Shown: positions 6,838 through 31,763 of the stretch, one piece after another | How positions within the stretch are numbered: position 1 is the stretch's first letter | Layout of the letters: each line of letters opens with the position of its first letter | NCBI GenBank assembly: GCA_963699255.1 | Contig: OY969425.1 | Coordinates: 150,001 to 182,000, forward strand | Direction of reading: 5' to 3' | Source: an uncultured bacterium | Lineage (GTDB): Bacteria > Margulisbacteria > WOR-1 > CAVSGV01 | Length of the DNA: 32,000 bases | Notes under the pieces: generated by a model | Told to the model about the DNA's origin: nothing | What the model saw: only the letters and a program-made list of their open reading frames with translations | Database searches by the model: none | Translations under genes and position numbers: made by a program

Positions 6838-6853
6838 TTAGAGGGGATCAATA

Positions 6854-7657
6854 ATGTCGATAATCAGTATAAATAGCAAATCTATTAAGCGTGATTATAA
6901 CGGTTACAGCAAATATTTGGAAGATAGCAAGGACAATCAAAATATCCATGCCAATAGGTGTCGTTATGATGGTATCCATAAATACATGGAAGATTTCAGG
7001 AACAGCCAAAAGAGCAATTCTTATAAGCGTAATTACAATGGCTACAACCAGTATTTGGAAGGCAGCAAGGACAATCAAAATATCCATGCCAATAGGTGTC
7101 GTTATGATGGCATCCATAAATATATGGAAGATTTCAGGAATGGCCAAAAGTCCAAAATTATTGATCCAAATGATGTTCTTCAGCTTTATTGGGCGCAAAA
7201 GTTGGATATCGATGAAATATCAAAAAATAACCCGACACCTGTTCTTCAGGCGGATAATCGTGATCCGGCGCTTATAAAGGCAATGTCAGATCATAATACC
7301 CCTTCAGTACTTCAGTGGCAGTTATTGGCAATAGGTGTGAACTGCAATAATGCCTTGCAAACATTGGGTTTTTCAGTTATTCAAGATGCCGCAAGTGGTT
7401 TGAGCCGTTTAATTGGAGATGGAAGGATAGCGCCATACACTACCGATGAGCAGATATGGCAGGCATGGCAAAATTCGCTTGGGAAGAACGTGGCCAATAC
7501 CTTATACTCAGGAACAGAAAGCGTAGCGATATATATGACAGGAGAAATGGCCGACGCTTTACTTCCTTTAAAAGGGTCCATAGGGAAAGGGCTTGTAAAG
7601 AACAGTGCTTATGCCGGCGCTTCTTACGGCTTCAATTATATGTCGATGGAGAAATAA
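6854..7657 (+). CDS. hypothetical protein with a 2 x 46-aa N-terminal tandem repeat
   Basis: 267-aa ORF with a strong RBS (GAGGGGA, 6 nt upstream). No signal peptide and no recognised family. Residues R13-K58 are repeated as R59-D104. Confidence 0.6.
   Translation: MSIISINSKSIKRDYNGYSKYLEDSKDNQNIHANRCRYDGIHKYMEDFRNSQKSNSYKRNYNGYNQYLEGSKDNQNIHANRCRYDGIHKYMEDFRNGQKSKIIDPNDVLQLYWAQKLDIDEISKNNPTPVLQADNRDPALIKAMSDHNTPSVLQWQLLAIGVNCNNALQTLGFSVIQDAASGLSRLIGDGRIAPYTTDEQIWQAWQNSLGKNVANTLYSGTESVAIYMTGEMADALLPLKGSIGKGLVKNSAYAGASYGFNYMSMEK
6890..7165 (+). repeat. tandem direct repeat, 2 x 138 bp, in frame within the 6854 ORF
   Basis: Unit 1 spans 6890-7027 and unit 2 spans 7028-7165. An ~80-nt core is nearly identical: agcaaggacaatcaaaatatccatgccaataggtgtcgttatgatgg.atccataaata.atggaagatttcaggaa. 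Confidence 0.9.
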
Positions 7658-10649: not shown

Positions 10650-11443
10650 ATTTCAGGCTTCTCGATCTGATCGATATTATCGTTGTGGCAGCCGCCATTT
10701 ACTATCTTCTTGTCTGGCTTCGCGGAACTCGCGCATTCGCGCTTATGCGGGGGCTGGCCGTGGTGCTTCTTTTGTACCTGGCCGGAAAGGTATTCGGTTT
10801 GTACACTACGACCTGGCTGCTTGAAAGACTCGGCCCTCTTATACTCGTCATAATAATAATTATTTTCCAGCCGGAGCTGAGGCGCACCCTTGAGCATATC
10901 GGGAGAGGAAGGGTCTTTGTTAGGCTTGGGATGACGGGCGGGGGAAGGGGCGCCATGATGGTCGGCAATATCGTTAAAGCCATTGAACAACTTTCCGAGG
11001 CAAAGATCGGGGCGCTGATAGCGATTGAAAGAAGCACGGGACTTTCCGAATTCCTTGAAAGCGGAGTAAAACTTGATGCCGAGATATCTTCCGAGCTCCT
11101 TGTCTCGATCTTTTTTCCGAAAAATCCAATTCACGACGGAGCCGTGATCATCCAGGGCGAGCGCATAGCATCTGCCGGATGCCTGTTCCCTTTATCTGAC
11201 ACAAAGCTTCTGGACAGGCGGCTCGGGACAAGGCACAGGGCTGCGGTCGGCATGAGCGAACAAACTGACGCCCTCGTATTCGTGGTTTCGGAAAAAACGG
11301 GGATAATATCCATGGCCGAGAACGGATATCTCTCAAGGAACATCTCCACAGAGATGCTTGAAGAGAAACTTTTCGATCTGTACAAAGCGAGTCCATCCCG
11401 GAAAGAACGGGTTGGCCTGCGAAAGGCGGCAAAAAAGGCTTGA
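10646..11443 (+). CDS. cdaA: membrane-anchored diadenylate cyclase (CdaA/DacA type)
   Basis: 265 aa. Hydrophobic N-terminal helices are followed by a DisA_N domain with HDGAVIIQG and GTRHRAAVG motifs. Confidence 0.85.
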   Translation: MNFRLLDLIDIIVVAAAIYYLLVWLRGTRAFALMRGLAVVLLLYLAGKVFGLYTTTWLLERLGPLILVIIIIIFQPELRRTLEHIGRGRVFVRLGMTGGGRGAMMVGNIVKAIEQLSEAKIGALIAIERSTGLSEFLESGVKLDAEISSELLVSIFFPKNPIHDGAVIIQGERIASAGCLFPLSDTKLLDRRLGTRHRAAVGMSEQTDALVFVVSEKTGIISMAENGYLSRNISTEMLEEKLFDLYKASPSRKERVGLRKAAKKA

Positions 11444-15331: not shown

Positions 15332-15847
15332 ATGACCAACAATAGGATAGGCTTCGGTTACGACGTCCACAAGCTTGTGAAAGGAAGAAAGTTGATAATC
15401 GGCGGCGTCGAGATAAAGTTCAAAAAAGGACTTGCCGGCCATTCCGATGCCGATGTCCTTGTACATGCTATCATCGATTCTTTGATTGGGGCTATGGGAG
15501 AACATGACATAGGATTTCATTTTCCGACGAACGACCCGAAGTATAAGGGAATTTCGAGCCTCCTTATGCTGGAAAAGATATCAGACCTCGTAAGATCAAA
15601 GGGATACACTGTAATAAATATCGACTCCACGGTCGTCGCGGAAGCCCCAAAGATCAGCCCGTATACAAGAGAGATGCGGATGAACATATCATCAGTTCTC
15701 GGCATTCCCGAGAACTGCGTCAATATCAAAAGCAAAACTGAGGAAGGGCTTGGCTTCACGGGAAAAGGGCAGGGCATAGCCGCTTACGCAGTATCCCTCA
15801 TAGAAGGCAATATTCTCCAATATGCCACAAATCTCTTCAAGAGATGA
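15332..15847 (+). CDS. ispF: 2-C-methyl-D-erythritol 2,4-cyclodiphosphate synthase
   Basis: 171 aa with IGFGYDVH and GHSDADVLVHA motifs. Confidence 0.9.
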   Translation: MTNNRIGFGYDVHKLVKGRKLIIGGVEIKFKKGLAGHSDADVLVHAIIDSLIGAMGEHDIGFHFPTNDPKYKGISSLLMLEKISDLVRSKGYTVINIDSTVVAEAPKISPYTREMRMNISSVLGIPENCVNIKSKTEEGLGFTGKGQGIAAYAVSLIEGNILQYATNLFKR

Positions 15848-18811: not shown

Positions 18812-19909
18812 ATGAAAGCATTTATACTTGCTGCCGGGTATGGCAAGAGATTAGAGCCTCTTACGAAGGCGATACCCAAGCCGATGGTCCCCGTGGCTAA
18901 CAAGCCCATCATGCAGTATAACATCGAGCTTCTGAGGAAATACGGAATAAAGGACATTGCCGCGAATATCCACTATTTCCCGGAGCAGGTGGAGAATTAT
19001 CTGGGGGACGGCAGCTCCTTCGGCGTCAACCTGAAGTATTCCTACGAGGAGGAGCTTCTTGGCACCGCGGGCGGGGTGGGGCGCATGTCACGGCACTCCA
19101 GGATTGACGGGACTTTCATCGTGATAGCCTCCGACATTTTAACTGATGTCAATATAAGCAGGCTGATCGCGTACCATAAGAGGAAGAAAGCGGTCGCGAC
19201 CATAGCGCTGACGCCGGTGGAAGATGTGACGCAGTTCGGCGTTGTCATGCTTGATGAGAGCGACAGGATCACGGGATTCCATGAAAAGCCCTCAAGAGAA
19301 GAGGCAAAGAGCGATCTTGTGAATACCGGGGTTTATATCTTTGAGCCTGAGATCCTGGACATGATACCCGAAGATAAAGCATCGGACTTCGGCAGGGAGA
19401 TCTTCCCGCGGCTGGTTTCCGACAAGGCCCCTTTTTACGGGTACAGGATGATAGAGTACTGGAGCGATATCGGGGGGATAGAAAAGCTGAAATCCGCCAA
19501 CTCGGATATTCTTCAGGGAAGGGTAAGGGCGGAGGTTTCCGCGAGGCGGGTCGGCACATCCACCTGGCTTGGAAAGGGGACCCGGGTCGCCAGAAGCGCT
19601 AAATTTGACGGGACGATCATTTTGGGGGACAAGAGCGTCATCGGTGAGAATGTTGAAGTGTTCGGCAATGTTTCCGTGGGCGACAACTGCGTCATAGAGG
19701 ATGGAAGCATAATCTCAGATTCAGTTATCTGGTCTGATACCCGCGTCGGCAAAAGATCCAGGCTCAATAAATGTCTTATAGGGAGCTGGTGCCGACTGGA
19801 AGATGATGTGCGGATAGAGGAAGGATGCGTTATAAGCAACAGATGCCGGGTCAGGCAGGGCAAAAAACTTGAACATGACACGAAAGTTGAGCCCGATAGA
19901 ACTATATAG
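18812..19909 (+). CDS. sugar-1-phosphate nucleotidylyltransferase with a C-terminal left-handed beta-helix (ManC/GCD1-like)
   Basis: 365 aa with the N-terminal ILAAGYGKRLEPLT nucleotidyltransferase motif and hexapeptide-like repeats in the C-terminal ~110 aa. Substrate not assignable. Confidence 0.75.
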   Translation: MKAFILAAGYGKRLEPLTKAIPKPMVPVANKPIMQYNIELLRKYGIKDIAANIHYFPEQVENYLGDGSSFGVNLKYSYEEELLGTAGGVGRMSRHSRIDGTFIVIASDILTDVNISRLIAYHKRKKAVATIALTPVEDVTQFGVVMLDESDRITGFHEKPSREEAKSDLVNTGVYIFEPEILDMIPEDKASDFGREIFPRLVSDKAPFYGYRMIEYWSDIGGIEKLKSANSDILQGRVRAEVSARRVGTSTWLGKGTRVARSAKFDGTIILGDKSVIGENVEVFGNVSVGDNCVIEDGSIISDSVIWSDTRVGKRSRLNKCLIGSWCRLEDDVRIEEGCVISNRCRVRQGKKLEHDTKVEPDRTI

Positions 19910-19977
19910 CTTACGGCTGACTGCTCACAGCTAACGGCTAAAAGCCGTGTGCTGTAGCCGCAGGGCGTGCCGTAAGC
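19909..19977. terminator. nested hairpin element directly after the nucleotidyltransferase stop
   Basis: The outer stem GCTTACGGC (19909-19917) / GCCGTAAGC (19969-19977) encloses an inner hairpin ACGGCT-AAA-AGCCGT (~19934-19948). There is no U-tract. Confidence 0.35.
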
Positions 19978-19991
19978 TGTCAGCTAAATCT

Positions 19992-20026
19992 CATGCAAGT
20001 TTTTCGCAAGTTATCCCGATAATATG
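19992..20026 (+). promoter_or_regulatory. sigma-28-like promoter copy 1 (CATGCAAGTTTT-N13-CGATAATATG)
   Basis: The exact 12-mer is shared with the copies at 22250, 31176 and 31768, with identical 13-nt spacing. The box starts 126 nt upstream of the ATG at 20143. Confidence 0.55.
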
Positions 20027-20096
20027 TCCGTAGGAGAAGGTGTGTCAGCCCTGGAGTAATGGGGCTGCATATTTCAGGGTCAGCGATGAAGCGGCA

Positions 20097-20130
20097 TGAA
20101 ATCTTTTCTGGATTTTGACGATATATATAG
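20097..20130 (+). promoter_or_regulatory. degenerate sigma-28-like promoter (TGAAATCTT-N13-CGATATATATAG)
   Basis: The -10-like box matches the giant gene's copy exactly over 12 nt (CGATATATATAG), with the same spacing. The box starts 24 nt before ATG 20143. Confidence 0.4.
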
Positions 20131-20142
20131 AGAGGGAGAAAT

Positions 20143-20481
20143 ATGAGCATAGTTCCGATGAACCAAAGTACAAGTAAATTTGACCCGTTGTCACAAGCCG
20201 GGATTGATTATTTTAATGCCAGGAAAGCTCAGTCAAAAGCATTGCAGGACGGCATCGCCGGCGCGCTTGACATAGCGAGGATAGCTACACCGGGACCGAA
20301 TGTTAATACCAGGAACGATTACACTGGCAGCCAGGACCCGGCTACGGCTATAATCAGGTTTTTATATAAGTTGGGGGTTTTCGGAGGCGAGGATCTACCA
20401 GGCACGCAGGTTTATTCGACCGATGCGGGCAGTTCGCAAGGATATGCAACGCCAAAACCCAAAATTGATACTGAGAGATGA
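20143..20481 (+). CDS. hypothetical 112-aa protein
   Basis: ORF with RBS GGGAG. No signal peptide or TM segment, and no family recognised. Confidence 0.55.
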   Translation: MSIVPMNQSTSKFDPLSQAGIDYFNARKAQSKALQDGIAGALDIARIATPGPNVNTRNDYTGSQDPATAIIRFLYKLGVFGGEDLPGTQVYSTDAGSSQGYATPKPKIDTER

Positions 20482-20497
20482 ACTTAGTGGAGCATAA

Positions 20498-20749
20498 ATG
20501 ACGACCGACATAATAATAGACCAGATAAGGACCCATTGGTGGATCCTGCTTTTTATAATATGCATGGTTTCATATTTTGTTTATTCCTTTATTAAGGAAG
20601 CCATGGAGCTTAAGGCGGTAAAAGACAGGAAGAAGGCGCTTGAAAAGGAACTGGACGGCTTGAAGGCTCAGTACAATGAAGAGGCGAAAAAGCTTGAAGG
20701 TAAAATGGAAGAACGGAAAAAATTCTATCGAGGGGGAAAAAGGCAGTGA
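20498..20749 (+). CDS. small single-pass membrane protein with a Lys/Glu-rich coiled-coil tail
   Basis: 83 aa with RBS GTGGAG. A hydrophobic segment (HWWILLFIICMVSYFVYSFI) is followed by KEAMELKAVKDRKKALEKELDGLKAQYNEEAKKLEGKMEERKK. Its stop overlaps the next gene's GTG (GTGA). Confidence 0.55.
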   Translation: MTTDIIIDQIRTHWWILLFIICMVSYFVYSFIKEAMELKAVKDRKKALEKELDGLKAQYNEEAKKLEGKMEERKKFYRGGKRQ

Positions 20750-22146
20750 GCGGCGAACTTCAACCGGTAGTGAGCAATAATCCTAACGGGACCAATTTGG
20801 GGAATACCGCCATTCCTGATAACCAATTTGATCCGAATGATCTTGTGGATTTTGCCAATCTGAAAAAGCAAATAGACGGCAATAAGGACGGAATTAGCCT
20901 TACAACTCTGAAGACCTTTCAAAGCCTGGATAAAGTGACACAAAAGTTGAAGGAGGAATTTAAAGGGCTTGGTATTGGCGAGAGTGAAATTCATGCATGG
21001 CTTGCAAAAATGATCACGAAGCAGCTGGCTGATCCGGGATCGTATCCGCTGAATCCCTCTGATTTCAATATACTTAAATGGGTTAAGATAGGGCGGAGGG
21101 AGGTTCGCGCGCTGGTAAATTCGGTACGTAACGACCTCAGCTTTTTCCAGAAAATAACCAGTACTCTTTCCGTTCATAAGGTGACCCGCGCCGCGTTCCA
21201 TGAATTATTCGTCATGAACGAAAATGATACCGCTCCCATTGACGGCTCAAAAGACCTGTTCCATGAATTATTCCACAGGGAGACCGTTGACCTTGATCAC
21301 TTCAAGACCACACTTGAAGATGAGGTGTTCCCTTTTGCCCAATCCGTATCTCCCCGCAACGCGCTCTCAAGGACGCTGCGGCTTCTGTCCGCAAGAAGGT
21401 TCATCATGATCGATTCAAACCACATGTCGGATTGCGTTAAAACAGCGTTGTATAATCTGGCACTGTCAAGGATCGAGAAAGAATTTCCTCCCGCACAGGA
21501 CAAAGATAAGCCGGATAACGCGAAGACCAGGAAAGACCTGCTGAAAGAGATCGCCGACTATCTTAACGGAAAGAAAGACGGTGAAAACAACGATATTTTC
21601 GATGTTTTGGGGATCACGCAGAGGCCTCCGGAGAAATTACCCCCGAAGAAACTTGATCCGAACTGCAGGGCGCAGGAACTGCATGATAAATATTTTAGCG
21701 GAGTGGAAGGATCGGCCCTGGTCGAGTCTATTGGTTATGCGTATTTCACGGGTCTCGCATCGGGCAAAACCGGCGTAAAAGATGTTTTTTCTTCGGCCGG
21801 GCTGAACACCATATGGGGGAGGCTTGTTCGTGATCTTGAACTGAAGGGCGGGAGCGAAATGGAATTCAACAGGAAGATCAAGAACCATTACGAAAAACAG
21901 GGAGAAGCTATGGATCATATGGTCACATCGCTCCTTGACGACTACGGATTGATGGATAACCCCGCTGACGGCGAAACGGATCCAGTCCAGGCGTGGAGCG
22001 GCAACGAGAAAATAATTGATATCGGCCCTTCCCACGAGACCCCGTTCTATCCGTGGGTCAACTGGGTAGTAAAGCATCCTGATGAGGTCGGCAAAAAGGA
22101 TATTGCGACGCCGCCCAAACCGACGGAGCAAGGGATACCTGAATAA
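20746..22146 (+). CDS. hypothetical 466-aa protein with a single HExxH motif
   Basis: Long ORF with a GTG start coupled to the upstream stop. HELFH lies at aa 173-177 (nt 21262-21276). No signal peptide and no family recognised. Confidence 0.6.
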   Translation: MSGELQPVVSNNPNGTNLGNTAIPDNQFDPNDLVDFANLKKQIDGNKDGISLTTLKTFQSLDKVTQKLKEEFKGLGIGESEIHAWLAKMITKQLADPGSYPLNPSDFNILKWVKIGRREVRALVNSVRNDLSFFQKITSTLSVHKVTRAAFHELFVMNENDTAPIDGSKDLFHELFHRETVDLDHFKTTLEDEVFPFAQSVSPRNALSRTLRLLSARRFIMIDSNHMSDCVKTALYNLALSRIEKEFPPAQDKDKPDNAKTRKDLLKEIADYLNGKKDGENNDIFDVLGITQRPPEKLPPKKLDPNCRAQELHDKYFSGVEGSALVESIGYAYFTGLASGKTGVKDVFSSAGLNTIWGRLVRDLELKGGSEMEFNRKIKNHYEKQGEAMDHMVTSLLDDYGLMDNPADGETDPVQAWSGNEKIIDIGPSHETPFYPWVNWVVKHPDEVGKKDIATPPKPTEQGIPE

Positions 22147-22162
22147 CAGTTAGCCGCAAGTA

Positions 22163-22192
22163 AACCGGTATAACTTCTCCGGGCGTTTTTTT
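22163..22192 (+). terminator. weak stem followed by a T7 run after the 466-aa gene
   Basis: CCGG...CCGG short stem, then GCGTTTTTTT (T-run 22186-22192). The stem is poor. Confidence 0.3.
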
Positions 22193-22249
22193 GAGTATTA
22201 CTTCTTACGCATTTTAAGCCTTTTTTAGCCCTATTTTTCTTATAAAACC

Positions 22250-22286
22250 CATGCAAGTTTTCCCCTGTTCTCCCCGATATATATAG
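22250..22286 (+). promoter_or_regulatory. sigma-28-like promoter copy 2 (CATGCAAGTTTT-N13-CGATATATATAG) of the giant gene
   Basis: Exact 12-mer with 13-nt spacing. The box starts 29 nt before ATG 22304, and RBS GGGGAG lies between them. Confidence 0.6.
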
Positions 22287-22303
22287 TGTAAAGGGGAGAC
22301 AAA

Positions 22304-25300
22304 ATGCCGGAAATAAACATACAACAAGTTACCGATATTCCTCAAACCGACGCCACCAGCGATGTTGCTGGCGGCGCTGATGTTTCCGCGGCCTATATAG
22401 CTTCCGACGTACAGACCGCCCCAGATGTGAACGCGTCCATCGGCATTGACAGCGTAGCGGTCTCGTCCGGCGTTTCCACATCTCAGGTTGGCGTTGGCGG
22501 CGCTGTTGAGCAGGAAGAATCCTCAAATTACATCCAGAGCGATGTTGAGACGGCTTCACAATCCGGTCAGCTCGAATATGACATGAACTCCCTTGCGAAA
22601 ATAAATGACTCCTACAAATACATCGATCCAACCGCTTCCGGGATACAGTCGATACTGGCCAATCTATATGCGAACGGGACCATAAACAGCGGCATGTCCG
22701 AGGAAGAAGTCGTTCTTGCCATTAACACATACGTTTTCAGCAATTACTCGTACATAGCTGATACGGGTGATACCTGGAATTCCGTTTCGCAGACCATAAA
22801 GAACGGGGGAGGCGACTGCGAGGACTTCGCGAACCTGGCAGCCAGCCTGATGACAGCCGCATTATTGGACAGAGGACTTAGCCAGGAAGAAATAAACAAA
22901 AAGATCGATTGTGTTGTTGTTGCCGATCCCAACACCGGGTTGGGCCACGTTTATGTGCAGTATACCGGCGATGATGGCTCCATAAAATATCTGGACCCTG
23001 TTTCTGCAAGGGTAACGACTTCAATAGACAGCTCCAAGGTCGTTCTCTTCAGCTACAGCGATGAGAACGTGGATGTCATTGATGAAAACTTCGATTTCTC
23101 AAGGCTTGACACGGCCAGTTACACGATTCCGGCGGACACCGCCACCTATATCCAGGTCCTCCCTGGTGAGTTCCAGAATTACTGGGAGTCGCTGCTGGGC
23201 ATGGAGGACTCCGCGGCCCACGACAATGCCATCGGAATTTACCAGTCGTTACAGGACCTTATTAACGCAGTTAATGCGAAATACGGCAGCTGGGACAACG
23301 GCGTGACCACGACGGCTGATCTGGATACGATCAATGCTTTTCTTGCTAAACTGGATAGCAATTATATTCAGGACTATGATACGGTAGTTAAGCCGTTCCA
23401 GGACCAGTATGAGGCGATATTGACCAAGCTCGGCGTGGACACATCTCCATATAACCCGGACGCAACCGCATATTCTACCGCAATGCTCAATTATTTTACT
23501 ACCATGAATACATATATATTCGCTTATTGCTGGCACACAACAACTTATAAAGAATGGAGCCAGAGCGGCAAAACAATGAACGGCGTATCGGATGACCTTA
23601 TAGCTATCGAATATTTGAAGAACGGCATTTCGACCCTTGAAGATTTTAAAGCCAAGCATCATGACCAGATAATAGAGACCGCGGCTGACCCTACAAAGGG
23701 AACGGCCGAGGTGGATTGGTCAAACGATTATATATATGACAACATTTACTTTAAAAATCCCAACGGCGGAAATGTATGCACCGTGAGGCAGGGTTTAGCG
23801 GCCATTCAGGCGTATGTTTCGTATGTTGACGCGACCAAAACATGGAACTTCATGTCCCTTGCATATCCCGGAGAAGCCCGCGTGGCCAAATATTGCGGGT
23901 ATGCGGACAAATACCACACCAGCTTTAAAACGACCAATGATTATCTGGCATCCATCACCAGCTTCCTGGAACAGGCGGAGTACGGTGTGGGGGTGCTGGA
24001 CAAGGATCTGGAGGAGTTGGACAGCGCGATAGATGTAATAAATGCCGATGCGACCGTTACCGACGACCAGACCAATTATAATTCCGCTGATGCAAAGTTC
24101 AACAACTGTACCGATGCTGCGGCAAATGATGCTGTAAACCTTTATTGGAATGGCGAAGCAGATTATCTCACTTCAGGAAACCCCGACAACAGTCTGTTAC
24201 AGGTCACTGATGAGAAGACGAGAAATGCAAACCTGGAAGCTCTTTATAAACAGGCCAGCTCTTATGACCAGGGCCAGATGTATGCGGGTTCAAACCAGGC
24301 GGATGTTGAAGCGGCCCTGGAATATTATGTTGAATTCAAGACTGCAGACAAGGCTCTGACGGAGGCGAAAACAACACAGGCCACCTTAAGGGCTGACTTC
24401 AAGGCGATGTACAAGAACGCGGATGGCAGTGAAATGTCCGACGCGGACCTTGACAATGTTCTGAACGACTATCAATCCGAATATATGAGCAAAGATACCG
24501 ACCCCTCAAGCACCACTTATGGCTACTGGGAGATCAATCAGGATGCATCGCTGTTCACCGAAAAGATAAAAGAAGCGAGCATGTTGAAAGGGTACCTGAC
24601 CGGAATATCTCTTATATATGAGGCAAGGAGGGACCTGAGAAAACTGGTCGAGGAAGAACTGGAGGGGGAAGGCGACGACTACAAGGCGATGGAGATAAAC
24701 AAGCTGTTCATGAAAAAGGTGAACAAGCTGACGGAATATATCCAGCAGACGATCGTTGATGTGTTGTCGGCAATAAACTCCCTTGACCAGGCCAAGTATG
24801 ATCAGGATGTAAGCGACATAAACACAAAATATGATAAAAAGGCGGAAGAAATAAAGAAGAACGACGCGCTCAAGTGGTATCAGTTCTGCGAGGACGACAA
24901 CACGCAAGAGGATCTCCTTAAAAATGACGATGCGAGGTATGGCGAAATCAACGCTGCGGATGATAAGTTCAAGGCGGTAAAAGAAAAACAACTGAACATC
25001 GTCAAGCACCTGCTGTCGGAGACCGGAATGACGGTTTCGGGGACAACGGGAGATGAAATATGGGCTTCCATAAATAAACAGATTAACACTTCGCTGGACA
25101 ATATGGATAATTACAGCCGCGCCACGCTTAACACGAGCGATGACTCCCAATACCGCGAAGTGGACAGAAATCTGGTAAGTTCTGAGAGGGCAAGCCTGCT
25201 GGGCGTCTTCGGTATTCAAAGGATGATACTTATAGCAAGGCAGGCGGGAAGCGACATGAGGAACCTTGTTCATCAGGAGATGACGGGGATCGGCGGCAGG

Positions 25301-28300
25301 CAGTCAAGAACGGATGTTGCTGCAGATATGGTTTCGGCCGACTCCAATATGGTGATGACCTGGTTCGATGAAGCGGTGAGCGACATAGAAACAATAACGA
25401 ACCTCGGCAACCAGATCAGGTATAACGAGATACAGATAGAGAAGAACCAAAAGCTGATCGAGAAGATAGATTCGCAGAAATCGAAAAGATTATGGGGGCA
25501 TATTTTTGAGGCACTTGCCTTTGTGGCGGCGGTCGTCGCGATATGGGTCCCTATAGTCGCGGTCGTCGCGATCGCGTTTGGCGTTGTTTCGGCTGTTTTG
25601 AAGGCGTCCGCAAATAAAGCGGTGGCGGATGAGAAAGCAAAACTGGAAAAAGACTATAGCTACCAGGTGATAAAGCCGACGGATCCGGTCTTTGAAAAGA
25701 AGCTCAATGCGATGAGCGGGTTAACGGACGAACAAAAGAAAGAGATACTGCAGAATTATGATCCGAACTCGACGACATTTAAGGGTAATTTGGATAAGGT
25801 CAGCGGCTTAAGCGCGGAGCAGAAGGATGAAATATTGAACGCGGCTGATCCGAGCCGGGCAGCCTATGAGAAGACCATTAATGCCGACACTTCCTTAACT
25901 GAAAAACAAAAAGAAGCTCTAATTAACGCGTATGACCCGAATGAAGAGATCTTTAAAAAGAACCTGGCGAATCTCAACGCGTCCACCTCGGCCCCGTGGT
26001 ATGAGTTCTGGAAAAGCGACACGCCGGGATTGGGGTTAAGCGACTCCCAGATCACCATGATAACCGACGCGTATGAAGGGAATACCTTCATGCTCAGTAT
26101 TGATTCTAGTACTATATTAACCGAAGCTCAAAAGAAAGAGATAAGGAATGCATATGATAAGGACAGGGTGACTTTTGAATCGAATTTAGACAGCCTTGGT
26201 TTAAGCGATGACCAGATAAGCGCGGTAATGAAGGCATATGATGAGCAGACTGACAATTCGGCGAACGATAAGAATTATTCAGATGATAATATCATCAATA
26301 CGGCGTTGAATTCAGATAACTCGACGCAGGACATACTTTGGAACATGAACGATGCCAACTATCTGTCCTTTATGAATGACGGGCACGCAGGCTCATACGC
26401 GGGATCATCTGCGTTTAACACGGTCAAGTTCGCGAGCACCCTGGAGAACATAAAGGCCAATGACCTGATCGTCATGGTCGCCGAATCTTGCAGGGAGACG
26501 ATGGCCGAGATGAGGAACCTGGTGCATGAGGAAATGACCTCTATCGGGGGAAGGTCGCCGTCAAGCATGGTAACGGCCACGATGGAAGCGGCCAGAGGTC
26601 AGGAAGCTTTCATCGCGAATGAAATGTACATGAAGCTGTGGGACATGAACACCTCGAACAATCAAAGGTTCGAGAGGGACCAGAAGCTGAGGCTCTATCA
26701 GCAAATGGCAGATGAGGCGGATGTGACCTTTGGTCTGAGCTTTATCCCTATTGTCGGAGGGCCGGTGGGGGATTTTTATTCGAACCTGAGCGGTATGAAG
26801 GATCAGAGGAACCAGCTGGAGGAGACAAGCAATGAAAAATTTGATGCAAATCCCGACCTGGAAGAAGCGGATCTTAACGCTTTAGTCGAGGATGGTCTGA
26901 TAAATACGGGGAATGACACAAAAGGGGTTAATTATGAGAAAGTATCCAATGCTCGAACCGCGGTCGCAAAGGAATTCATAAAGGAAAGCGTTGAAGCGAC
27001 GATAAAGAAGACCCTGCATGAGCTAAGAAGCATCGCTCACATGGAAATGACGAATATCCAGAGCAGCACGGGCACGGATTTTGCCAGCCAGGCTAATATC
27101 GTGAACTTCACGTCGGCACTGGAGACCATTTCACTTGTCACCCAATACCTTACCCAGAAGGCGGAGATAATGAACAGGGTCACCGAGGCGAACCAGAGCA
27201 TCTCAAAGCTGAACAAGCAGATCACAAACTATGAGATCGGGGGAGGGATAGCCCTGGCGGTCGCGATCGTGGTATCTGTTTTCATGCCCGGCGGGTTTGA
27301 CTCTGTTCTGGCCGCTCTTGATACCCTTCAACTTGCTTCCTCCGTTGGCAGTTTTGTTCTCGGGGTATTCAGCACTATAAACGCGTGGATCGAAGCGAAA
27401 TTCGCAGCTCAGCTGGCAAAGGACGACATGGGCGATGTCGCCGAATACCTGGAGATACAGGACATGAACAATGAGAACATCGATTCCACCCAGAACAGGC
27501 TGGAGGCTCTTGAACAGAACAGCATAAATGAAATAAACGCGAGCCTGCTTCAGGACCTTGGCTCCGGATACATAGGAGTGAACAAGGCGCTTTCGTCAGA
27601 GTTTAAGACCTTAATAGAACAGCTTTACAGGGCAGAGAGAAGTCAATCGGAGATCCAGCAGACCCTTGAGGCGTTAAGGAATACCGTGCACGAGGCAATG
27701 ACCGGAATATCCGGCGTGTCCAGCAACGCGACCATGTCTATTCTTGACATGAAGGAAAAGGCAATAAAGGCGAAGATAGACGACATGTTCAGCAAGCTTG
27801 AAGAGGTGGCGACCAGGTGGAACCAGATCTCGGATGCCCAGAGAGCGGCGGAAAAAGCCAGAATGCAGGCATGGACGACCACTCTCAGCACCATTATACA
27901 GGGCATCATAATTGCGATATCGCTTTATAGCGCGTTCGGTAAGGAGCCGGCGGCGAAAGATAAAGTTGATGCGGCGCAAAATGACGTGGATAGTGCACAG
28001 ACCCCTGATGAATTAGATGCGGCGGAAGGTGAGCTTCGTGATGCCCAAGCCGACTATCAAGCCCTTCAAAGCAGGGTCGCGCTATACACCAATGTTTGCC
28101 TCCCCGCGGCGGAGATCCTGATCAAGCTGGCTATGGCCTTTATAGAAAAAGATGAAATGCAAGGCGTTCAAAAGACAAGGGAAGAGGAAGTATCGAATGC
28201 GGGGGTCACGAAGGTTACGAAGGACGCAGGCGAGACGGTGAAAGAGGGCGTTGCGGGAGCCGGCCTTAATGGGTTTGCGGCGAGGGGCCAGGCGGTAGCC

Positions 28301-30166
28301 GGACAGCGTGAGGTGGACAATCAGGCAGCCACATACGCCCTGAAGAGCGACGAGATCGAGGATGATTTTAGGACGAATCTATACAACGTTGAAATGGACA
28401 CCGTGGACTATGCTAAGGGGCTTACGAAGGAGCTGGCAAGAATGTGGAAGAACAGGAGAACAGAGGCTTACCAGAACACGCAGAGCTTCGCGAAGCAATT
28501 GGAGTCGATGAAATTGAGCAAGGCTCAGATGGACGCGCTTAACCAGGCATTTAAGAGCGACAGCGCTGAAGAATTCTTGAAGCAGCTGGCGTCAATAAAC
28601 GGGTTGAGCGATGCCCAGGTGAACGCGATAGAGCAAGCTTATGATAATTGCAAGCATGTTTCCGCCCTTGGCTCCTTTAAGGAAAGAATGGATGCATCAG
28701 CTGCGGTAGGGAAATTGGATCCGGCACAGAAGAAAGCGGTAATTGATGCGGCTAATAGCAGCACAAGCGTTAAAGACTTTGCGAAGAAATTGAACGCGAT
28801 ACAGGGATTAAGCTCTACTCAGAAGGACGCGTTAATTAACGCATTCGATCCGAAAATGAAGACCTTTGCGGACAAGATCGACGCGTCGCTGACGCTGAAT
28901 AATGATGATAAAAAGAGCGCGGTAAAGAATGCCTATGACCCGAACGTTAAGACCTGTATCAATAATGTATTAGCAATATCATCCCTGACCGATGCTGAAA
29001 AACTGACGGCGCTGCAGGCCATTGATCCGAAGATAAGTTCTTTTATAGACAATATGGGTCCGGCAGTGACCGATACCCAGAAGCTGTCCATAATGAAACA
29101 GTTCGATCCGAACGAGGTGGCTTTTAAGAAGAACGTTGATTCAATGGATGATATAACTCCGGTCCAAAAGAAGGATGTCATGAAGGCATTTCACATGGCA
29201 GTGATAGATAACAAAGACATAAAAAATCTGACCGATGCGGATAAGATAAAATCGATACAGGGCTTAAATCCGGCAATGAAGCATAAGATGGTCAAAGCTG
29301 TATATGACGCCCAGCATAAGGTCAGTCAGGCGAAAGATCTGATCAACCAAGCGAAGCAGCTGCCTTCCATCAATCAGGTGACGGGCGCCGGCACACAGGC
29401 GCAGTCCCAGGCGATCTCGACGCCGCCGGTGGCCCCGCAGGGAAAACAGTCAGCGAACACCTCCAATACACAGGCTATGCTGGATAAGCTCCTGAGCAGT
29501 TTTGATAAGAACATGCAGGAATTAAATGGTTTACAATCTCAGGTTGATAAGCTTAATGCCCAGACGACGGAAAAGCTGGACCCGAAAGAATTGTTGAAAA
29601 TACTTCAGCAGCAGTTGAAGGATGCGGGCGCGAAGATCGCCAACGAAAAGAAATTAATCGACACCATGAAGCAGGAGGTTGCAAAGACCCAGACAGCTCT
29701 TGCCACACAGGAACAGAACGTGCAAGAGGAAAGAGATAAACTTGTTAAAGCTATAAAGAAAGTGGATGATCAGATAAAAAAACTTGGTGAACTGGCCGCA
29801 AGATCCCCCGAGAATAAGAAGGTCATTGAAAATCAGTTGAACCAGTTGAATGACCAGCTTGAAGAAATGATGACATTATATAAATCGACGCAAGAAATGT
29901 ACGGTATTGCCCTGGGGACGGAAAAAGCCCTGGAGAATGAAATAAAGGATAAGGAAGGCAAGGTGGAGATACTTAAAGCGGAAGTTGTCAAGATCAAGGC
30001 GGATATAAACAATATACAGAAAGAGATCCTGGCGAAGAAAGCCGGCGGGGACAATAAGAATACGGCCAGCATCAATATCCAGACGCCGAAGATCACTTCA
30101 GAGACGCCAATGTTCAGCACAGGCGCTCCAACAGCCCCCAAAAAACAATACGCCTATACAGCATAG
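22304..30166 (+). CDS. giant (2620 aa) multi-module membrane-associated coiled-coil protein with an N-terminal transglutaminase-like cysteine-peptidase core; function unknown
   Basis: 7.86 kb frame with no stop, and a good RBS and promoter motif. Predicted features come from reading the translation. Hydrophobic segments lie at aa 1067-1099, 1645-1665, 1677-1696 and 1857-1879. Internal repeats and a C-terminal heptad-rich region (~aa 2390-2580) are also present. Confidence 0.85.
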   Translation: MPEINIQQVTDIPQTDATSDVAGGADVSAAYIASDVQTAPDVNASIGIDSVAVSSGVSTSQVGVGGAVEQEESSNYIQSDVETASQSGQLEYDMNSLAKINDSYKYIDPTASGIQSILANLYANGTINSGMSEEEVVLAINTYVFSNYSYIADTGDTWNSVSQTIKNGGGDCEDFANLAASLMTAALLDRGLSQEEINKKIDCVVVADPNTGLGHVYVQYTGDDGSIKYLDPVSARVTTSIDSSKVVLFSYSDENVDVIDENFDFSRLDTASYTIPADTATYIQVLPGEFQNYWESLLGMEDSAAHDNAIGIYQSLQDLINAVNAKYGSWDNGVTTTADLDTINAFLAKLDSNYIQDYDTVVKPFQDQYEAILTKLGVDTSPYNPDATAYSTAMLNYFTTMNTYIFAYCWHTTTYKEWSQSGKTMNGVSDDLIAIEYLKNGISTLEDFKAKHHDQIIETAADPTKGTAEVDWSNDYIYDNIYFKNPNGGNVCTVRQGLAAIQAYVSYVDATKTWNFMSLAYPGEARVAKYCGYADKYHTSFKTTNDYLASITSFLEQAEYGVGVLDKDLEELDSAIDVINADATVTDDQTNYNSADAKFNNCTDAAANDAVNLYWNGEADYLTSGNPDNSLLQVTDEKTRNANLEALYKQASSYDQGQMYAGSNQADVEAALEYYVEFKTADKALTEAKTTQATLRADFKAMYKNADGSEMSDADLDNVLNDYQSEYMSKDTDPSSTTYGYWEINQDASLFTEKIKEASMLKGYLTGISLIYEARRDLRKLVEEELEGEGDDYKAMEINKLFMKKVNKLTEYIQQTIVDVLSAINSLDQAKYDQDVSDINTKYDKKAEEIKKNDALKWYQFCEDDNTQEDLLKNDDARYGEINAADDKFKAVKEKQLNIVKHLLSETGMTVSGTTGDEIWASINKQINTSLDNMDNYSRATLNTSDDSQYREVDRNLVSSERASLLGVFGIQRMILIARQAGSDMRNLVHQEMTGIGGRQSRTDVAADMVSADSNMVMTWFDEAVSDIETITNLGNQIRYNEIQIEKNQKLIEKIDSQKSKRLWGHIFEALAFVAAVVAIWVPIVAVVAIAFGVVSAVLKASANKAVADEKAKLEKDYSYQVIKPTDPVFEKKLNAMSGLTDEQKKEILQNYDPNSTTFKGNLDKVSGLSAEQKDEILNAADPSRAAYEKTINADTSLTEKQKEALINAYDPNEEIFKKNLANLNASTSAPWYEFWKSDTPGLGLSDSQITMITDAYEGNTFMLSIDSSTILTEAQKKEIRNAYDKDRVTFESNLDSLGLSDDQISAVMKAYDEQTDNSANDKNYSDDNIINTALNSDNSTQDILWNMNDANYLSFMNDGHAGSYAGSSAFNTVKFASTLENIKANDLIVMVAESCRETMAEMRNLVHEEMTSIGGRSPSSMVTATMEAARGQEAFIANEMYMKLWDMNTSNNQRFERDQKLRLYQQMADEADVTFGLSFIPIVGGPVGDFYSNLSGMKDQRNQLEETSNEKFDANPDLEEADLNALVEDGLINTGNDTKGVNYEKVSNARTAVAKEFIKESVEATIKKTLHELRSIAHMEMTNIQSSTGTDFASQANIVNFTSALETISLVTQYLTQKAEIMNRVTEANQSISKLNKQITNYEIGGGIALAVAIVVSVFMPGGFDSVLAALDTLQLASSVGSFVLGVFSTINAWIEAKFAAQLAKDDMGDVAEYLEIQDMNNENIDSTQNRLEALEQNSINEINASLLQDLGSGYIGVNKALSSEFKTLIEQLYRAERSQSEIQQTLEALRNTVHEAMTGISGVSSNATMSILDMKEKAIKAKIDDMFSKLEEVATRWNQISDAQRAAEKARMQAWTTTLSTIIQGIIIAISLYSAFGKEPAAKDKVDAAQNDVDSAQTPDELDAAEGELRDAQADYQALQSRVALYTNVCLPAAEILIKLAMAFIEKDEMQGVQKTREEEVSNAGVTKVTKDAGETVKEGVAGAGLNGFAARGQAVAGQREVDNQAATYALKSDEIEDDFRTNLYNVEMDTVDYAKGLTKELARMWKNRRTEAYQNTQSFAKQLESMKLSKAQMDALNQAFKSDSAEEFLKQLASINGLSDAQVNAIEQAYDNCKHVSALGSFKERMDASAAVGKLDPAQKKAVIDAANSSTSVKDFAKKLNAIQGLSSTQKDALINAFDPKMKTFADKIDASLTLNNDDKKSAVKNAYDPNVKTCINNVLAISSLTDAEKLTALQAIDPKISSFIDNMGPAVTDTQKLSIMKQFDPNEVAFKKNVDSMDDITPVQKKDVMKAFHMAVIDNKDIKNLTDADKIKSIQGLNPAMKHKMVKAVYDAQHKVSQAKDLINQAKQLPSINQVTGAGTQAQSQAISTPPVAPQGKQSANTSNTQAMLDKLLSSFDKNMQELNGLQSQVDKLNAQTTEKLDPKELLKILQQQLKDAGAKIANEKKLIDTMKQEVAKTQTALATQEQNVQEERDKLVKAIKKVDDQIKKLGELAARSPENKKVIENQLNQLNDQLEEMMTLYKSTQEMYGIALGTEKALENEIKDKEGKVEILKAEVVKIKADINNIQKEILAKKAGGDNKNTASINIQTPKITSETPMFSTGAPTAPKKQYAYTA
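22630..23030 (+). other. transglutaminase-like / BTLCP-like Cys-His-Asp core within the giant ORF
   Basis: DTWNSVSQTIKNGGGDCEDFANLAASL (Cys172, nt 22817-22819), GLGHVYVQY (His215, nt 22946-22948) and KYLDPV (Asp231, nt 22994-22996). Order and spacing fit the transglutaminase-like protease fold. Confidence 0.55.
25693..26250 (+). repeat. protein-level repeat array A (~6 units of ~28-30 aa, consensus gLSxxQKxxIxNAYDPNxxxFxxNL)
   Basis: Example units: MSGLTDEQKKEILQNYDPNSTTFKGNLDKV / SGLSAEQKDEILNAADPSRAAYEKTINAD / TSLTEKQKEALINAYDPNEEIFKKNLANL / TILTEAQKKEIRNAYDKDRVTFESNLDS. Confidence 0.8.
28487..29320 (+). repeat. protein-level repeat array B (~9 units of the same repeat family as array A)
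   Basis: Example units: QGLSSTQKDALINAFDPKMKTFADKIDAS / LTLNNDDKKSAVKNAYDPNVKTCINNVLAI / SSLTDAEKLTALQAIDPKISSFIDNMGPA / VTDTQKLSIMKQFDPNEVAFKKNVDSM. Confidence 0.8.
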
Positions 30167-30321
30167 GCCTGCAACCGCGAACATCAGCATTGTCTATCTC
30201 TTTAGGACCTGCAACAGAATCACGGCAATCGTCGGTATCTAGTGTCGGCTCCACATGACAGATTGCCGATGAACCATACATATAATATGATCTCTTTTTG
30301 TGTTAAAATCCTGGATCAGCA

Positions 30322-31020
30322 ATGGGCAGAGTATTGACATATATTTATTCGGTGATCTTTTGGGCATATCTTCTGCTCTTCTTCACACTGGTGCCGCTCT
30401 TCGCCCTGCCGTTCTCCTTGATATTCGGGCTGAAGCGGTCTTTCAGGACTTTTTTCAAGATATTCGTCAAATTCGGGCTGTTCATTTTAGGCTGTTTTCC
30501 GTCCGTTGAGGGGCTTGAGAACATGCCCCGGGGCAAAAATGTCATCCTTGTATCAAATCACCCCAGCTTCATGGACCCGTTCCTTCTTAACGCGGCCCTG
30601 CCCGGGTTCTACAATTTCATAGTTTCAGCCAGATTGCTTGATAATCCTTATTCAATGGTGGCAATAAGGGGCGCAGGCCTTGTGGTGAAGCGCTACGGAC
30701 ATTCCCTGTATGGTTCAAGCGCGATGATCAGGACCGTGAAAGCCATAAATGCCGGCGACTCGTTCATTCTGTTCCCGTCCGAGCGCGCCATTCTAGGAGG
30801 CCGCATCGATAAGATAAACCCCGGCTTTTATAAGGTGATTGAGGATGCGAGTGCAGTCATCCTGCCTGTGTTCATCAAGCAGGAAATAAGGTTCACATTT
30901 ATACGGAAGCCGTTCAAGGCAAAAGTGGTCATCGGAAAGCCGCTGGATAAACATAATGTACTATATGTAAGAGACAACGCCATTAAACAGGCAGTAGAAT
31001 TTCTAGGGCAACAAGTGTAA
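30322..31020 (+). CDS. lysophospholipid/1-acylglycerol-3-phosphate acyltransferase family (LPLAT, PlsC-like)
   Basis: 232 aa. The hydrophobic N-terminus is followed by the HX4D motif NHPSFMD. FPSER stands in the place of the usual FPEGTR block. Confidence 0.65.
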   Translation: MGRVLTYIYSVIFWAYLLLFFTLVPLFALPFSLIFGLKRSFRTFFKIFVKFGLFILGCFPSVEGLENMPRGKNVILVSNHPSFMDPFLLNAALPGFYNFIVSARLLDNPYSMVAIRGAGLVVKRYGHSLYGSSAMIRTVKAINAGDSFILFPSERAILGGRIDKINPGFYKVIEDASAVILPVFIKQEIRFTFIRKPFKAKVVIGKPLDKHNVLYVRDNAIKQAVEFLGQQV

Positions 31021-31067
31021 CCCGCCTGTGTCTAAAACCCCTTCTGTCCCTCGTTAATGCTCGGGAC

Positions 31068-31125
31068 ATCTCCCCCTTAGTAAGGGGGAGATACAGAGGG
31101 GGTTATTAAGCCCTCTTATTCTTAT
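31068..31125 (+). terminator. two consecutive hairpins followed by T-rich sequence after the acyltransferase gene
   Basis: ATCTCCCCCTTA-G-TAAGGGGGAGAT (31068-31092, 12-bp arms), then AGAGGG-N10-CCCTCT (31095-31116), then tattcttatttat. Confidence 0.45.
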
Positions 31126-31227: not shown

Positions 31228-31428
31228 ATGCCACAAAACGAAACTAATGGTGTACAACAGTCTCAAAATAAGCAACAGGAAAATCCTGCTGCGAAGAAAG
31301 TTATGGCAAATCAACCAAACAGAATGGCGAAGCCATCCGATGAGAGGTCGGATCAGCCGGACCTGAACATTACCGCACGGGTGGAACTTGAAGGCATGAA
31401 GCCGCCCATTGCCAACTGTATTGTCTGA
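31228..31428 (+). CDS. hypothetical 66-aa Gln/Asn/Pro-rich (probably disordered) protein
   Basis: ATG 31228 is preceded by GGGGAG, and I prefer it to the tracked TTG start at 31144 because the promoter motif lies at 31176. Sequence: MPQNETNGVQQSQNKQQENPAAKK... Confidence 0.45.
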   Translation: MPQNETNGVQQSQNKQQENPAAKKVMANQPNRMAKPSDERSDQPDLNITARVELEGMKPPIANCIV

Positions 31429-31442
31429 GGAGCACAAAAGCA

Positions 31443-31763
31443 ATGAACGCGATAACCGGCATAAATAAACAGATAAACCCCAACCAGGGTGTTGGGGTAA
31501 ATCCGACAACACAGCCCCAGAAGAGCGAGGGCAAAACGAATAATTCAGGCATAAATTTTAACAATGTATTTGAGATCGTGAGAAGGAGCCTTGACGGGGT
31601 TATGGTGGTGGCGGAGAACAACAGGACGGGCGGCGCTGATTTCAGGAAGGAAAAGCTGGAGATAGAGGAAAAGAGGAAGTTCAAGACCGACCTTGAAGAA
31701 GCCCAGGAGATACTGAACCAGATAGCAAAGGTCATGGAAAAGCACGGCAAAGCTGTAAAGTAA
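31443..31763 (+). CDS. hypothetical 106-aa protein (polar N-terminal half, charged helical C-terminal half)
   Basis: ORF with RBS GAGGAG, 14 nt after the previous stop. No family recognised. Confidence 0.5.
   Translation: MNAITGINKQINPNQGVGVNPTTQPQKSEGKTNNSGINFNNVFEIVRRSLDGVMVVAENNRTGGADFRKEKLEIEEKRKFKTDLEEAQEILNQIAKVMEKHGKAVK

Follow-up and report, generated by a model that had tools for sequence, protein, structure and literature searches.

A family of giant five-module proteins with a transglutaminase-fold head in Margulisiibacteriota

Bacterial cysteine proteases of the transglutaminase-like kind, LapG among them, normally reside in the periplasm or are secreted. In methyl-accepting chemotaxis proteins (MCPs), the cytoplasmic part is a long, membrane-tethered, antiparallel two-helix hairpin that is most conserved at its distal U-turn, the site where other proteins dock. 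Here we describe a giant gene whose product joins a putative domain of the former kind to five units that may be analogous to the latter. It lies in a 32,000-nucleotide (nt) stretch of DNA (the window) from an uncultured bacterium (GTDB lineage Bacteria; Margulisbacteria; WOR-1; CAVSGV01), namely, positions 150,001 to 182,000 of contig OY969425.1, assembly GCA_963699255.1. The gene is a single uninterrupted open reading frame (ORF) on the forward strand (22304..30166) that has an ATG start and encodes 2620 amino acids (aa) plus a stop codon. The family and its architecture are new, being marked by a five-module core, a diagnostic tip motif, and a conserved cluster of genes that belong to no recognized family.

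Among non-photosynthetic bacteria, Margulisiibacteriota and Saganbacteria are the nearest relatives of Cyanobacteria; to our knowledge, they have been encountered only in metagenomes and in a small number of symbioses. A paper on Omnitrophota giant proteins (bioRxiv 10.1101/2023.11.21.568195) and a survey of huge proteins (PMC11573180) found Margulisbacteria to be enriched in very large genes, and in the survey the Margulisbacteria giants received no COG assignment. What these very large genes are is stated in neither work. The five-module family is likewise described in neither, and no description of it was found in the literature on Margulisbacteria.

The giant gene and its five ordered modules

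The giant gene is a real gene and not a chimera. A Shine-Dalgarno sequence, GGGGAG, is located 7 nt 5' of the ATG, and a 157-nt gap separates the gene from the preceding one. An identical protein is present on the 1.77-Mb NCBI contig and on a separately assembled 12-kb Logan contig, which matches window positions 19303-31086 at 99.992% identity across 11,784 bp. GC content varies little along the ORF (0.46-0.51). The same gene order surrounds two full-length orthologues, of 2685 and 2690 aa (identity, 55-59%), and more distant ones of 2065-2409 aa. A first-pass annotation, made from the sequence alone, had named assembly chimerism as a way in which its own reading of this ORF could fail; with the second assembly and the colinear full-length orthologues in synteny, this was looked for and not found. 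None of the repeats of the protein was reported by Tandem Repeats Finder at the DNA level, the repeats having diverged so that they are visible at the protein level only. The parts of the protein, all on the forward strand, are the following.

22304..22588 (+): N-terminal segment, aa 1-95; acidic, Ser/Val/Ala-rich, with two Y-I-x-S-D-V motifs (aa 31 and 76) and without a signal peptide
22589..23089 (+): transglutaminase-fold (papain-like) domain, here called the head, aa 96-262; Pfam PF01841; putative triad Cys172 (nt 22817-22819), His215 (nt 22946-22948), and Asp231 (nt 22994-22996)
23090..24523 (+): variable aromatic/Asn/Asp-rich region, aa 263-740, delimited by composition
24524..25105 (+): module T1, aa 741-934; degenerate tip motif R779-KLVEEELE; without a hydrophobic hairpin
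25106..25705 (+): module T2, aa 935-1134; tip motif RNLVHQEMTGIGGR (aa 986-999, nt 25259-25300); hairpin at aa 1063-1104 (nt 25490-25615)
25706..26308 (+): array A of short helical repeats, comprising 6 units of ~29 aa (aa 1137-1330)
26309..26890 (+): module T3, aa 1336-1529; tip motif at aa 1404-1417 (nt 26513-26554); hydrophobic loop of only 15 residues, aa 1474-1488 (nt 26723-26767)
26891..27541 (+): module T4, aa 1530-1746; tip motif at aa 1575-1588 (nt 27026-27067); hairpin at aa 1642-1696 (nt 27227-27391)
27542..28198 (+): module T5, aa 1747-1965; tip motif at aa 1792-1805 (nt 27677-27718); two hydrophobic helices, aa 1858-1879 and aa 1925-1947
28499..29263 (+): array B of short helical repeats, in which 7 units of ~29-31 aa were detected (aa 2098-2310), of the same type as array A
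29264..29473 (+): low-complexity Gln/Pro/Ser/Thr/Ala-rich linker, recognized from translation and composition; Gln/Pro/Ser/Thr-rich at aa ~2358-2390
29474..30073 (+): C-terminal heptad-rich, coiled-coil-like tail, aa 2391-2590, from a heptad scan

The first-pass annotation had divided the 2620-aa ORF into six parts: an acidic Ser/Val/Ala-rich N terminus with a duplicated motif and no hydrophobic signal, a transglutaminase-like Cys-His-Asp core, about 500 aa of aromatic-rich sequence of no recognized family, five helical modules with hydrophobic segments and repeat array A, repeat array B, and a Gln/Pro-rich linker with a heptad-rich tail of about 200 aa. All six are present where it had placed them. 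Our analysis refines this picture, in that the five modules are paralogues in a conserved order and the arrays, of 6 and 7 units, are accessory and are absent in most relatives.

The modules form the core of the protein. Segments at about aa 941, 1357, 1530, and 1747 are mutually homologous (phmmer E values of 1e-5 to 1e-7), and a fifth, at about aa 748, is weakly so. In an alignment of 17 modules from six proteins, an Arg, a Met, a Thr, and an Asn are invariant and a His is nearly so; the conserved residues fall in the tip motif, R-x-L-V-H-x-E-M-T-G-I-G-G, and in the helix that follows it. T1 scores weakly against a general module hidden Markov model (HMM) but strongly against a T1-specific one, and its position is kept in relatives. 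With type-specific HMMs, all five modules of the window protein score highly (T1 at aa 739, T2 at 941, T3 at 1357, T4 at 1530, and T5 at 1747), and the order T1-T2-T3-T4-T5 is kept in those members in which all five can be typed, such as P0021 (T1 at aa 280, T2 at 464, T3 at 662, T4 at 847, and T5 at 1046) and P0056. In these fully typable members, a hydrophobic segment is found ~100-115 aa past the start of each of T2-T5, and none is found after T1. Because the order is shared among members, the five-module array is ancestral to the family and not the product of a recent local duplication. The window protein carries all of the traits by which the new family is defined, i.e., ordered T1-T5 modules, the tip motif, and a hydrophobic hairpin after T2-T5.

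Conservation is distributed unevenly within the modules. Within the core, conservation peaks in the tip motif (mean top-residue frequency, 0.59), whereas the hydrophobic hairpins show a mean top-residue frequency of 0.31, yet 84% of their residues are apolar or small. The alignments indicate that the hairpins conserve their hydrophobic character and not their sequence. Conserved tips together with hairpins that are merely apolar suggest that the hairpins may be anchors and the tips functional sites. In T5, the two hydrophobic helices are separated by a 45-aa acidic loop.

An AlphaFold2 (AF2) model of the core, computed from an alignment of aa 935-1965 with 37 full-length relatives, had a mean predicted local distance difference test (pLDDT) score of 77.2 and a predicted TM-score (pTM) of 0.67. 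Each module is predicted to begin with a short beta-hairpin at D-G-x-Y-x-G-V-N, followed by a 40-residue helix ending in R-x-L-V-H-x-E-M-T, an 8-residue Gly-rich tip loop, and a helix of 58-89 residues that leads straight into the hydrophobic segment, after which a tight turn and a return helix follow. In T2, for example, helix 955-994 and helix 1003-1078 are joined by the loop, and the latter runs into the hairpin. The first-pass annotation had assumed long coiled coils between the transmembrane segments; in the core model, these helices are antiparallel hairpins with conserved tips instead. As modeled, the giant protein would be almost wholly alpha-helical. Foldseek searches with the core model returned no significant match in the PDB or among viral structures. 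A model of a single module (from 17 sequences) was poor (pLDDT, 59.7), and a fold search with it is therefore meaningless.

Transglut_core (PF01841) is, judged by profile searches, the only known domain in the giant protein; it matches aa 123-185 with 29.4 bits against a cut-off of 23. Cys172 and His215 are kept in 13 of the 14 aligned family members (P0084 has lost both), and Asp231 is Asp in most aligned members and Asn in P0004. The sequence arrangement around the putative triad is GGGDCED...GHV...LDP. By profile score and triad, the head belongs to the transglutaminase-like superfamily, in keeping with the Cys-His-Asp core of the first-pass annotation; that it is also a protease, as had been stated there, we infer solely from the conserved triad. 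When the head profile was compared with the PDB, the best natural matches were LapG chains (4fgo, E = 1.1e-4; 4u65_E, E = 6e-4), with a similarity limited to ~55-105 residues around the catalytic Cys. The top-listed match, a designed repeat protein, was judged spurious. The profile of the BTLCP/C93 family was not among the Pfam matches at an E value of ≤1. The head was detected in 25 of 94 scanned sequences.

Among close relatives, the N-terminal 95 aa and the head are the best-conserved parts of the protein (48-75% identity). The N-terminal segment alone shows 54-75% identity, distant relatives included, with 36 invariant columns in an alignment of five homologues, and it is found in some family members that have no head. 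Its duplicated motif reads YIASDVQTA at aa 31 and YIQSDVETA at aa 76, and the Y-I-x-S-D-V pattern is limited to these two positions and to the giant-protein family. The two invariant Y-I-x-S-D motifs (22394-22408 and 22529-22543; aa 31-35 and 76-80) may correspond to the Y-x-x-x-D/E pattern of type VII secretion substrates; no type VII genes were seen in the window. A scan of the whole giant protein found no hydrophobic stretch upstream of aa 963.

The remaining parts are less conserved. At aa 201-700, Phe, Trp, and Tyr together amount to 10-14 per 100 residues, and the aromatic region (~480 residues) has no family match in Pfam and shares 14-25% identity with distant homologues. Arrays A and B have the repeat consensus GL(S/T)xxQKxxIxNAYDPNxxxFxxNL and occur only in the closest relatives (P0001-3, P0005, and P0033), not in P0004 or P0006. 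By this distribution, the arrays are recent, clade-specific, accessory insertions that most relatives lack. Heptad-like sequence makes up 67% of aa 2380-2600, and the whole protein contains 537 heptad-like residues (188 +/- 81 in shuffled sequences). The tail shows weak matches to coiled-coil chains in the PDB, and 21 of the 94 sequences scanned have such a tail according to its HMM.

Family spread and gene neighborhood

To delimit the family, the module profile was scored against 1.84 billion representative proteins (E ≤ 1e-3; clusters at 50% identity). It matched 92 clusters, 31 of them at an E value of ≤1e-30. The members range from 110 to 5152 aa, with most at 800-5152 aa and a few being short fragments, and as a rule they contain 3-6 modules each. 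All named members are assigned to Candidatus Margulisiibacteriota, Candidatus Margulisbacteria, Candidatus Saganbacteria, or candidate division WOR-1; they are annotated as hypothetical, with one exception that is called a "transglutaminase family protein". An alignment-based profile scan covering one genome per GTDB species found full-length relatives in metagenome-assembled genomes (MAGs); in Marinamargulisbacteria, Termititenax, and Riflemargulisbacteria, it found giant ORFs (2600 to >5273 aa) whose similarity is confined to the head. A single-protein query of genome contigs gave no match, whereas the alignment-based query did find relatives. Two homologue searches with an alignment as query returned almost nothing and missed the family itself, which makes them uninformative, and they are not counted as negatives. 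The giant protein of locus L061, a locus that shares the synteny of the window, clusters with NCBI entries of Margulisiibacteriota, which would put the bacterium of the window within that phylum or beside it. On the sequences covered, the family is restricted to Margulisiibacteriota, including Saganbacteria/WOR-1, and provides the signature giant subunit of a vertically inherited gene cluster.

Two further observations concern the giant ORFs themselves. (i) ORFs of 3547 to >5273 aa in Termititenax and Marinamargulisbacteria carry one or two N-terminal copies of the head and have little else in common with the window protein. The larger head-bearing ORFs are the following.

Locus L015, 6051-16691
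Locus L017, 9323-25141
Loci L014 and L018, from ~9300 to the end of the locus

(ii) In locus L009 (MAG MFD03726), the giant ORF (9989-11335) is broken after 449 aa, and tblastn similarity reaches query residue 2192; the break may reflect a frameshift or an error in sequencing, or the gene may be a pseudogene.

The giant gene lies within a cluster of ~14 genes, the sizes and order of which recur in six loci. The shared order is aroB-tyrS-ispF-pdxJ/SLH-rpiB-sugar nucleotidyltransferase, then small genes without a family, and then the giant gene. In these loci, the block upstream of the giant gene encodes proteins of ~100 aa, ~75-85 aa (one transmembrane helix and a charged helix), and 320-700 aa, and the block downstream encodes proteins of ~60, ~100, ~103, 450-665, 164-223, ~131, 527-982, and ~415-450 aa. 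The cluster neighbors had no match in the Pfam, NCBIfam, PHROGs, PADLOC, or PDB libraries tried. The orthology of several of them, including the 83-aa and 106-aa proteins, is backed by phmmer or jackhmmer. The products that are co-clustered with the giant gene appeared, on reading of their sequences, to have no signal peptides. The following cluster genes lie in the window next to the giant gene.

20143..20481 (+): upstream gene, 112 aa; orthologue at the same position in L002; no family match
20498..20749 (+): upstream gene, 83 aa; N-terminal transmembrane helix, then a charged helix; jackhmmer links homologues in all six loci
20746..22146 (+): upstream gene, 466 aa; orthologue in L002 and a 319-697-aa gene at the same place in other loci; no family or PDB match
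31228..31428 (+): downstream gene, ~66 aa; orthologue in L002 and a 58-70-aa gene at this position in all loci
31443..31763 (+): downstream gene, 106 aa; orthologous group in all six loci

Farther upstream in the window lie housekeeping genes, encoding a leuA-like protein, a diaminopimelate/ornithine decarboxylase, cdaA, panB, aroK, aroB, tyrS, ispF, pdxJ, rpiB, and a sugar nucleotidyltransferase; the downstream neighbor is a plsC-like acyltransferase. The setting is thus one of housekeeping and envelope genes, among them the gene for an SLH-domain lipoprotein, four genes upstream of the giant gene, cdaA, the sugar nucleotidyltransferase gene, and the plsC-like gene; in locus L060, PBP1, ftsEX, and surA are also present. 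The PADLOC defense-system scan found nothing. Tyrosyl-tRNA synthetase (TyrRS) is 59-81% identical among the six loci, and the giant protein has diverged much faster than its neighbors (identities of 56/34/22%, versus 81/74/59% for TyrRS).

Several side observations were made on the surrounding genes. The PdxJ gene (aa 1-234 of a 797-aa ORF at 15844-18237, + strand) is read in frame without a stop into an SLH-domain protein, and the SLH part has its own Met, a lipoprotein-type signal (MKKLLLFFIVFVSLCAC, aa ~231-247), and then a twofold tandem repeat of ~35 aa. The two are fused in L002, L003, and L005 and are separate genes in L007 and L061; the ORF may be a genuine fusion, or else a stop codon may have been lost and translation of the second protein may start internally. 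The leuA/homocitrate-synthase-like ORF (8159-9355, + strand) matches only HMGL-like positions 114-256, and its N-terminal part seems to be missing through truncation, a frameshift, or a misplaced start. A 267-aa ORF (6854-7657, + strand), which overlaps one on the opposite strand (6848-7198, -), contains an internal duplication of ~45 aa, YNGY.(K/Q)YLE.SKDNQNIHANRCRYDGIHKYMEDFRN, and lies in the part of the gene-dense region with the lowest GC content (0.42). Genes of PF05635 ("23S rRNA intervening sequence protein") are found inside the cluster in L003 (18652-19083) and L005 (16387-16887 and 25532-25948) and are absent from the window's part of the cluster.

Possible roles of the giant protein

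We tentatively favor the view that the giant protein is a hairpin-anchored inner-membrane scaffold with a protease head that takes part in a lineage-specific envelope or cytoskeletal assembly, and that it is not a secreted beta-rich adhesin. Four hairpins would anchor the chain in the cytoplasmic membrane, and all large soluble parts would stay on one side of it, most likely in the cytoplasm, because the protein has no signal peptide and a hairpin sends the chain back to its original side. The five two-helix stalks would project ~60 Å from the membrane (40 residues at 1.5 Å each), and their conserved tips could together offer a multivalent surface for docking, with the small proteins encoded in the cluster as the probable partners. 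The N-terminal domain may be a cysteine peptidase (or transamidase) whose substrate is a partner or the giant protein itself, and the tail may mediate oligomerization.

Four observations weigh against a scaffold of this kind. (i) Lys and Arg are only modestly enriched beside the hydrophobic segments (12.5%, versus a background of 10.1%), and the net charge there is the same as the background. (ii) The hydrophobic loop of T3, at 15 residues, is too short to span a bilayer. (iii) Since LapG-type proteases are usually periplasmic, a cytoplasmic head is not the default expectation. (iv) The fast divergence relative to TyrRS would also fit a surface-exposed or secreted molecule. On balance, the sequence features lend weak support to the cytoplasmic hairpin topology.

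With somewhat more reserve, we consider it possible that the giant protein and its conserved cluster neighbors (~14 genes) together make up an envelope or membrane-cytoskeletal machine specific to Margulisiibacteriota/Saganbacteria, in which the five stalks would serve as a pseudo-oligomeric platform that docks small proteins and has a LapG-like protease built in. If such a lineage-specific apparatus exists, it would bear on the diversification of the envelope near the root of the cyanobacterial lineage. Whatever its role, a hypothetical giant gene now has an anatomy, consisting of a five-module core, a diagnostic motif, a module order, a triad-bearing head, and a set of partner genes, which yields testable hypotheses on topology, tip docking, and proteolysis. 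The family profile would also let annotators recognize ~90 sequence clusters that are nameless at present.

A secreted effector or toxin that inserts into membranes is an unlikely alternative to the scaffold. Here, the hairpins would be hidden in a soluble helical form, exported by a non-Sec route, and inserted into a target or host membrane, after the model of alpha-pore-forming toxins of the ClyA/AhlB/YaxA type, type III translocators, or chlamydial Inc proteins, and the Cys-His-Asp head would be the effector domain. The absence of a signal peptide, combined with a conserved N-terminal segment that is not hydrophobic and might serve for export, is in line with this idea, as are the two-lobed hydrophobic hairpins of 35-55 residues that come after long helices, the fast evolution relative to the neighbors, and the ecto- and endosymbionts that, according to the literature, Margulisbacteria include. 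Matches to paramyxovirus F (fusion peptide and heptad region), YaxA, AhlB, XaxA, and MakA were seen at noise level, but none is significant (sequence E values of at least 0.5; Foldseek E values of at least 0.5 for the single module and, for XaxA with the core, 1.8; TM-scores of ≤0.3). A test against the ClyA family gave YaxA at E = 5.7 and, with Foldseek, AhlB at E values of at least 1.6 and XaxA at 1.8, with probabilities of ≤0.08. Moreover, the cluster contains no recognizable secretion-system gene, and the locus is chromosomal and syntenic in MAGs from sediment and freshwater. A profile search for other carriers of the N-terminal segment, which is a weak test, returned only one 149-aa fragment of the same family and no other type of protein bearing the putative signal.

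Rather more doubtful is a giant surface adhesin or envelope tether, in which hairpins in the inner membrane would let the head, the coiled coil, or both reach the periplasm or the cell surface and the periplasmic target of the LapG-like domain would be the cell wall or an adhesin. Such a location would suit the head, as LapG, its closest solved relative, and enzymes of its type are periplasmic or secreted; the nearby envelope genes (for the SLH-domain lipoprotein and, in L060, PBP1, FtsEX, and SurA), the acidic and quickly diverging soluble parts, and the reported enrichment of Margulisbacteria in very large proteins also speak for it. However, an N-terminal region of 1060 residues without a signal peptide or an early transmembrane helix is unlikely to be translocated, and hairpins would give no net translocation, since they bring the chain back to the side where it started. 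The protein is predicted to be almost all alpha-helical and has no Ig, cadherin, or RTX-type repeats among its Pfam matches, no type I secretion genes are found among its neighbors, and the larger relatives of 3698 and 4855 aa have no extracellular domains either. These results agree with the first-pass annotation, which had set the protein apart from beta-rich adhesins with Sec or type I secretion signals.

It is very unlikely that the giant protein is a self-processing polyprotein, in which the head would cut at the repeated ...EMTGIGG|R site, in the manner of Gly-Gly-specific papain-like proteases, and free five membrane modules. A papain-fold head does share the chain with a fivefold motif, the T2 and T3 copies of which end in Gly-Gly; T4 and T5 of the window protein, however, have no Gly-Gly, the xxGG form of the motif is found at 42% in members without the protease domain and at 34% in members with it, and the AF2 models place the motif at a helix-helix turn within a folded hairpin.

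We give very little credence to a phage tail tape-measure-like protein or a prophage remnant. The overall look is comparable, since tape-measure proteins are long helical chains that have hydrophobic segments and a domain for wall degradation, and they are among the top non-significant viral Foldseek matches, but these matches are poor (BFVD TM-scores of ≤0.14, E values of at least 3.6e-3), PHROGs gave only two marginal matches, neither to a tape measure (E values of at least 0.008), and tblastn against 50,697 phage and 72,556 plasmid records came back empty. The housekeeping neighbors in conserved synteny and the uniform base composition also argue against it. An assembly artefact, whether a mis-join or a run-through of several genes, has the odd length and composite look of the gene as the sole points in its favor and is practically negligible in view of the 11.8 kb of matching second assembly, the two full-length orthologues and many family members of 1700-5000 aa, the module order kept among relatives, and the even GC content.

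As a separate candidate, a single-chain 5:2 stator (MotA/ExbB/GldL/ZorA) was considered and rejected: there are only four hairpins, their sequences are unconserved, and they have no conserved polar transmembrane residues. The 83-aa transmembrane protein was likewise rejected as a stator partner; it has no conserved Asp, and the PADLOC match to ZorB reached only E = 0.019.

Comparison with described systems

Searches of the giant protein against Pfam, NCBIfam, PHROGs, PADLOC, and PDB sequences gave nothing beyond Transglut_core. No multi-domain match to a characterized family was found, which bears out the statement of the first-pass annotation that it knew of no described family with this combination of parts. 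The known systems that the protein resembles each share one aspect of it or a few.

The giants of candidate phyla are likewise large and mostly unannotated proteins from uncultured lineages; they too have a peptidase domain and numerous predicted membrane segments. They are longer, at >5,000 to 85,000 aa versus 2620 aa here, and the window protein has no SecA-DEAD, dockerin, or carbohydrate-active domains. The likeness to ClyA/AhlB/YaxA/XaxA, type III translocators, and Inc proteins is one of design analogy only, comprising long antiparallel helices, a hydrophobic hairpin of 35-55 residues, and the lack of a Sec signal. In contrast to these ClyA-type and hairpin-anchored proteins, the window protein has five units per chain, and it is the membrane-distal tip that is conserved, not the hydrophobic head.

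TgpA, from the inner membrane of Pseudomonas, is also a membrane protein with a Transglut_core domain. It differs in having N-terminal transmembrane helices (DUF3488) followed by a periplasmic transglutaminase domain and DUF4129; those accessory domains are unmatched in the window protein, in which the order of parts is reversed. In the case of LapG (peptidase C93; 4fgo and 4u65), the likeness lies in the triad and in the tie between a cysteine protease and a giant protein (cf. LapG/LapA). LapG is a stand-alone periplasmic enzyme of ~20 kDa with a Sec signal, whereas the putative protease described here is fused into a 2620-aa chain and has no signal. The MCP signaling hairpin differs from the modules of the window protein, which have no MCPsignal match in Pfam, carry another motif, have shorter arms (~40 residues), and come as five tandem units; by analogy, however, the two would be alike in their membrane-tethered two-helix form and their conserved distal turn.

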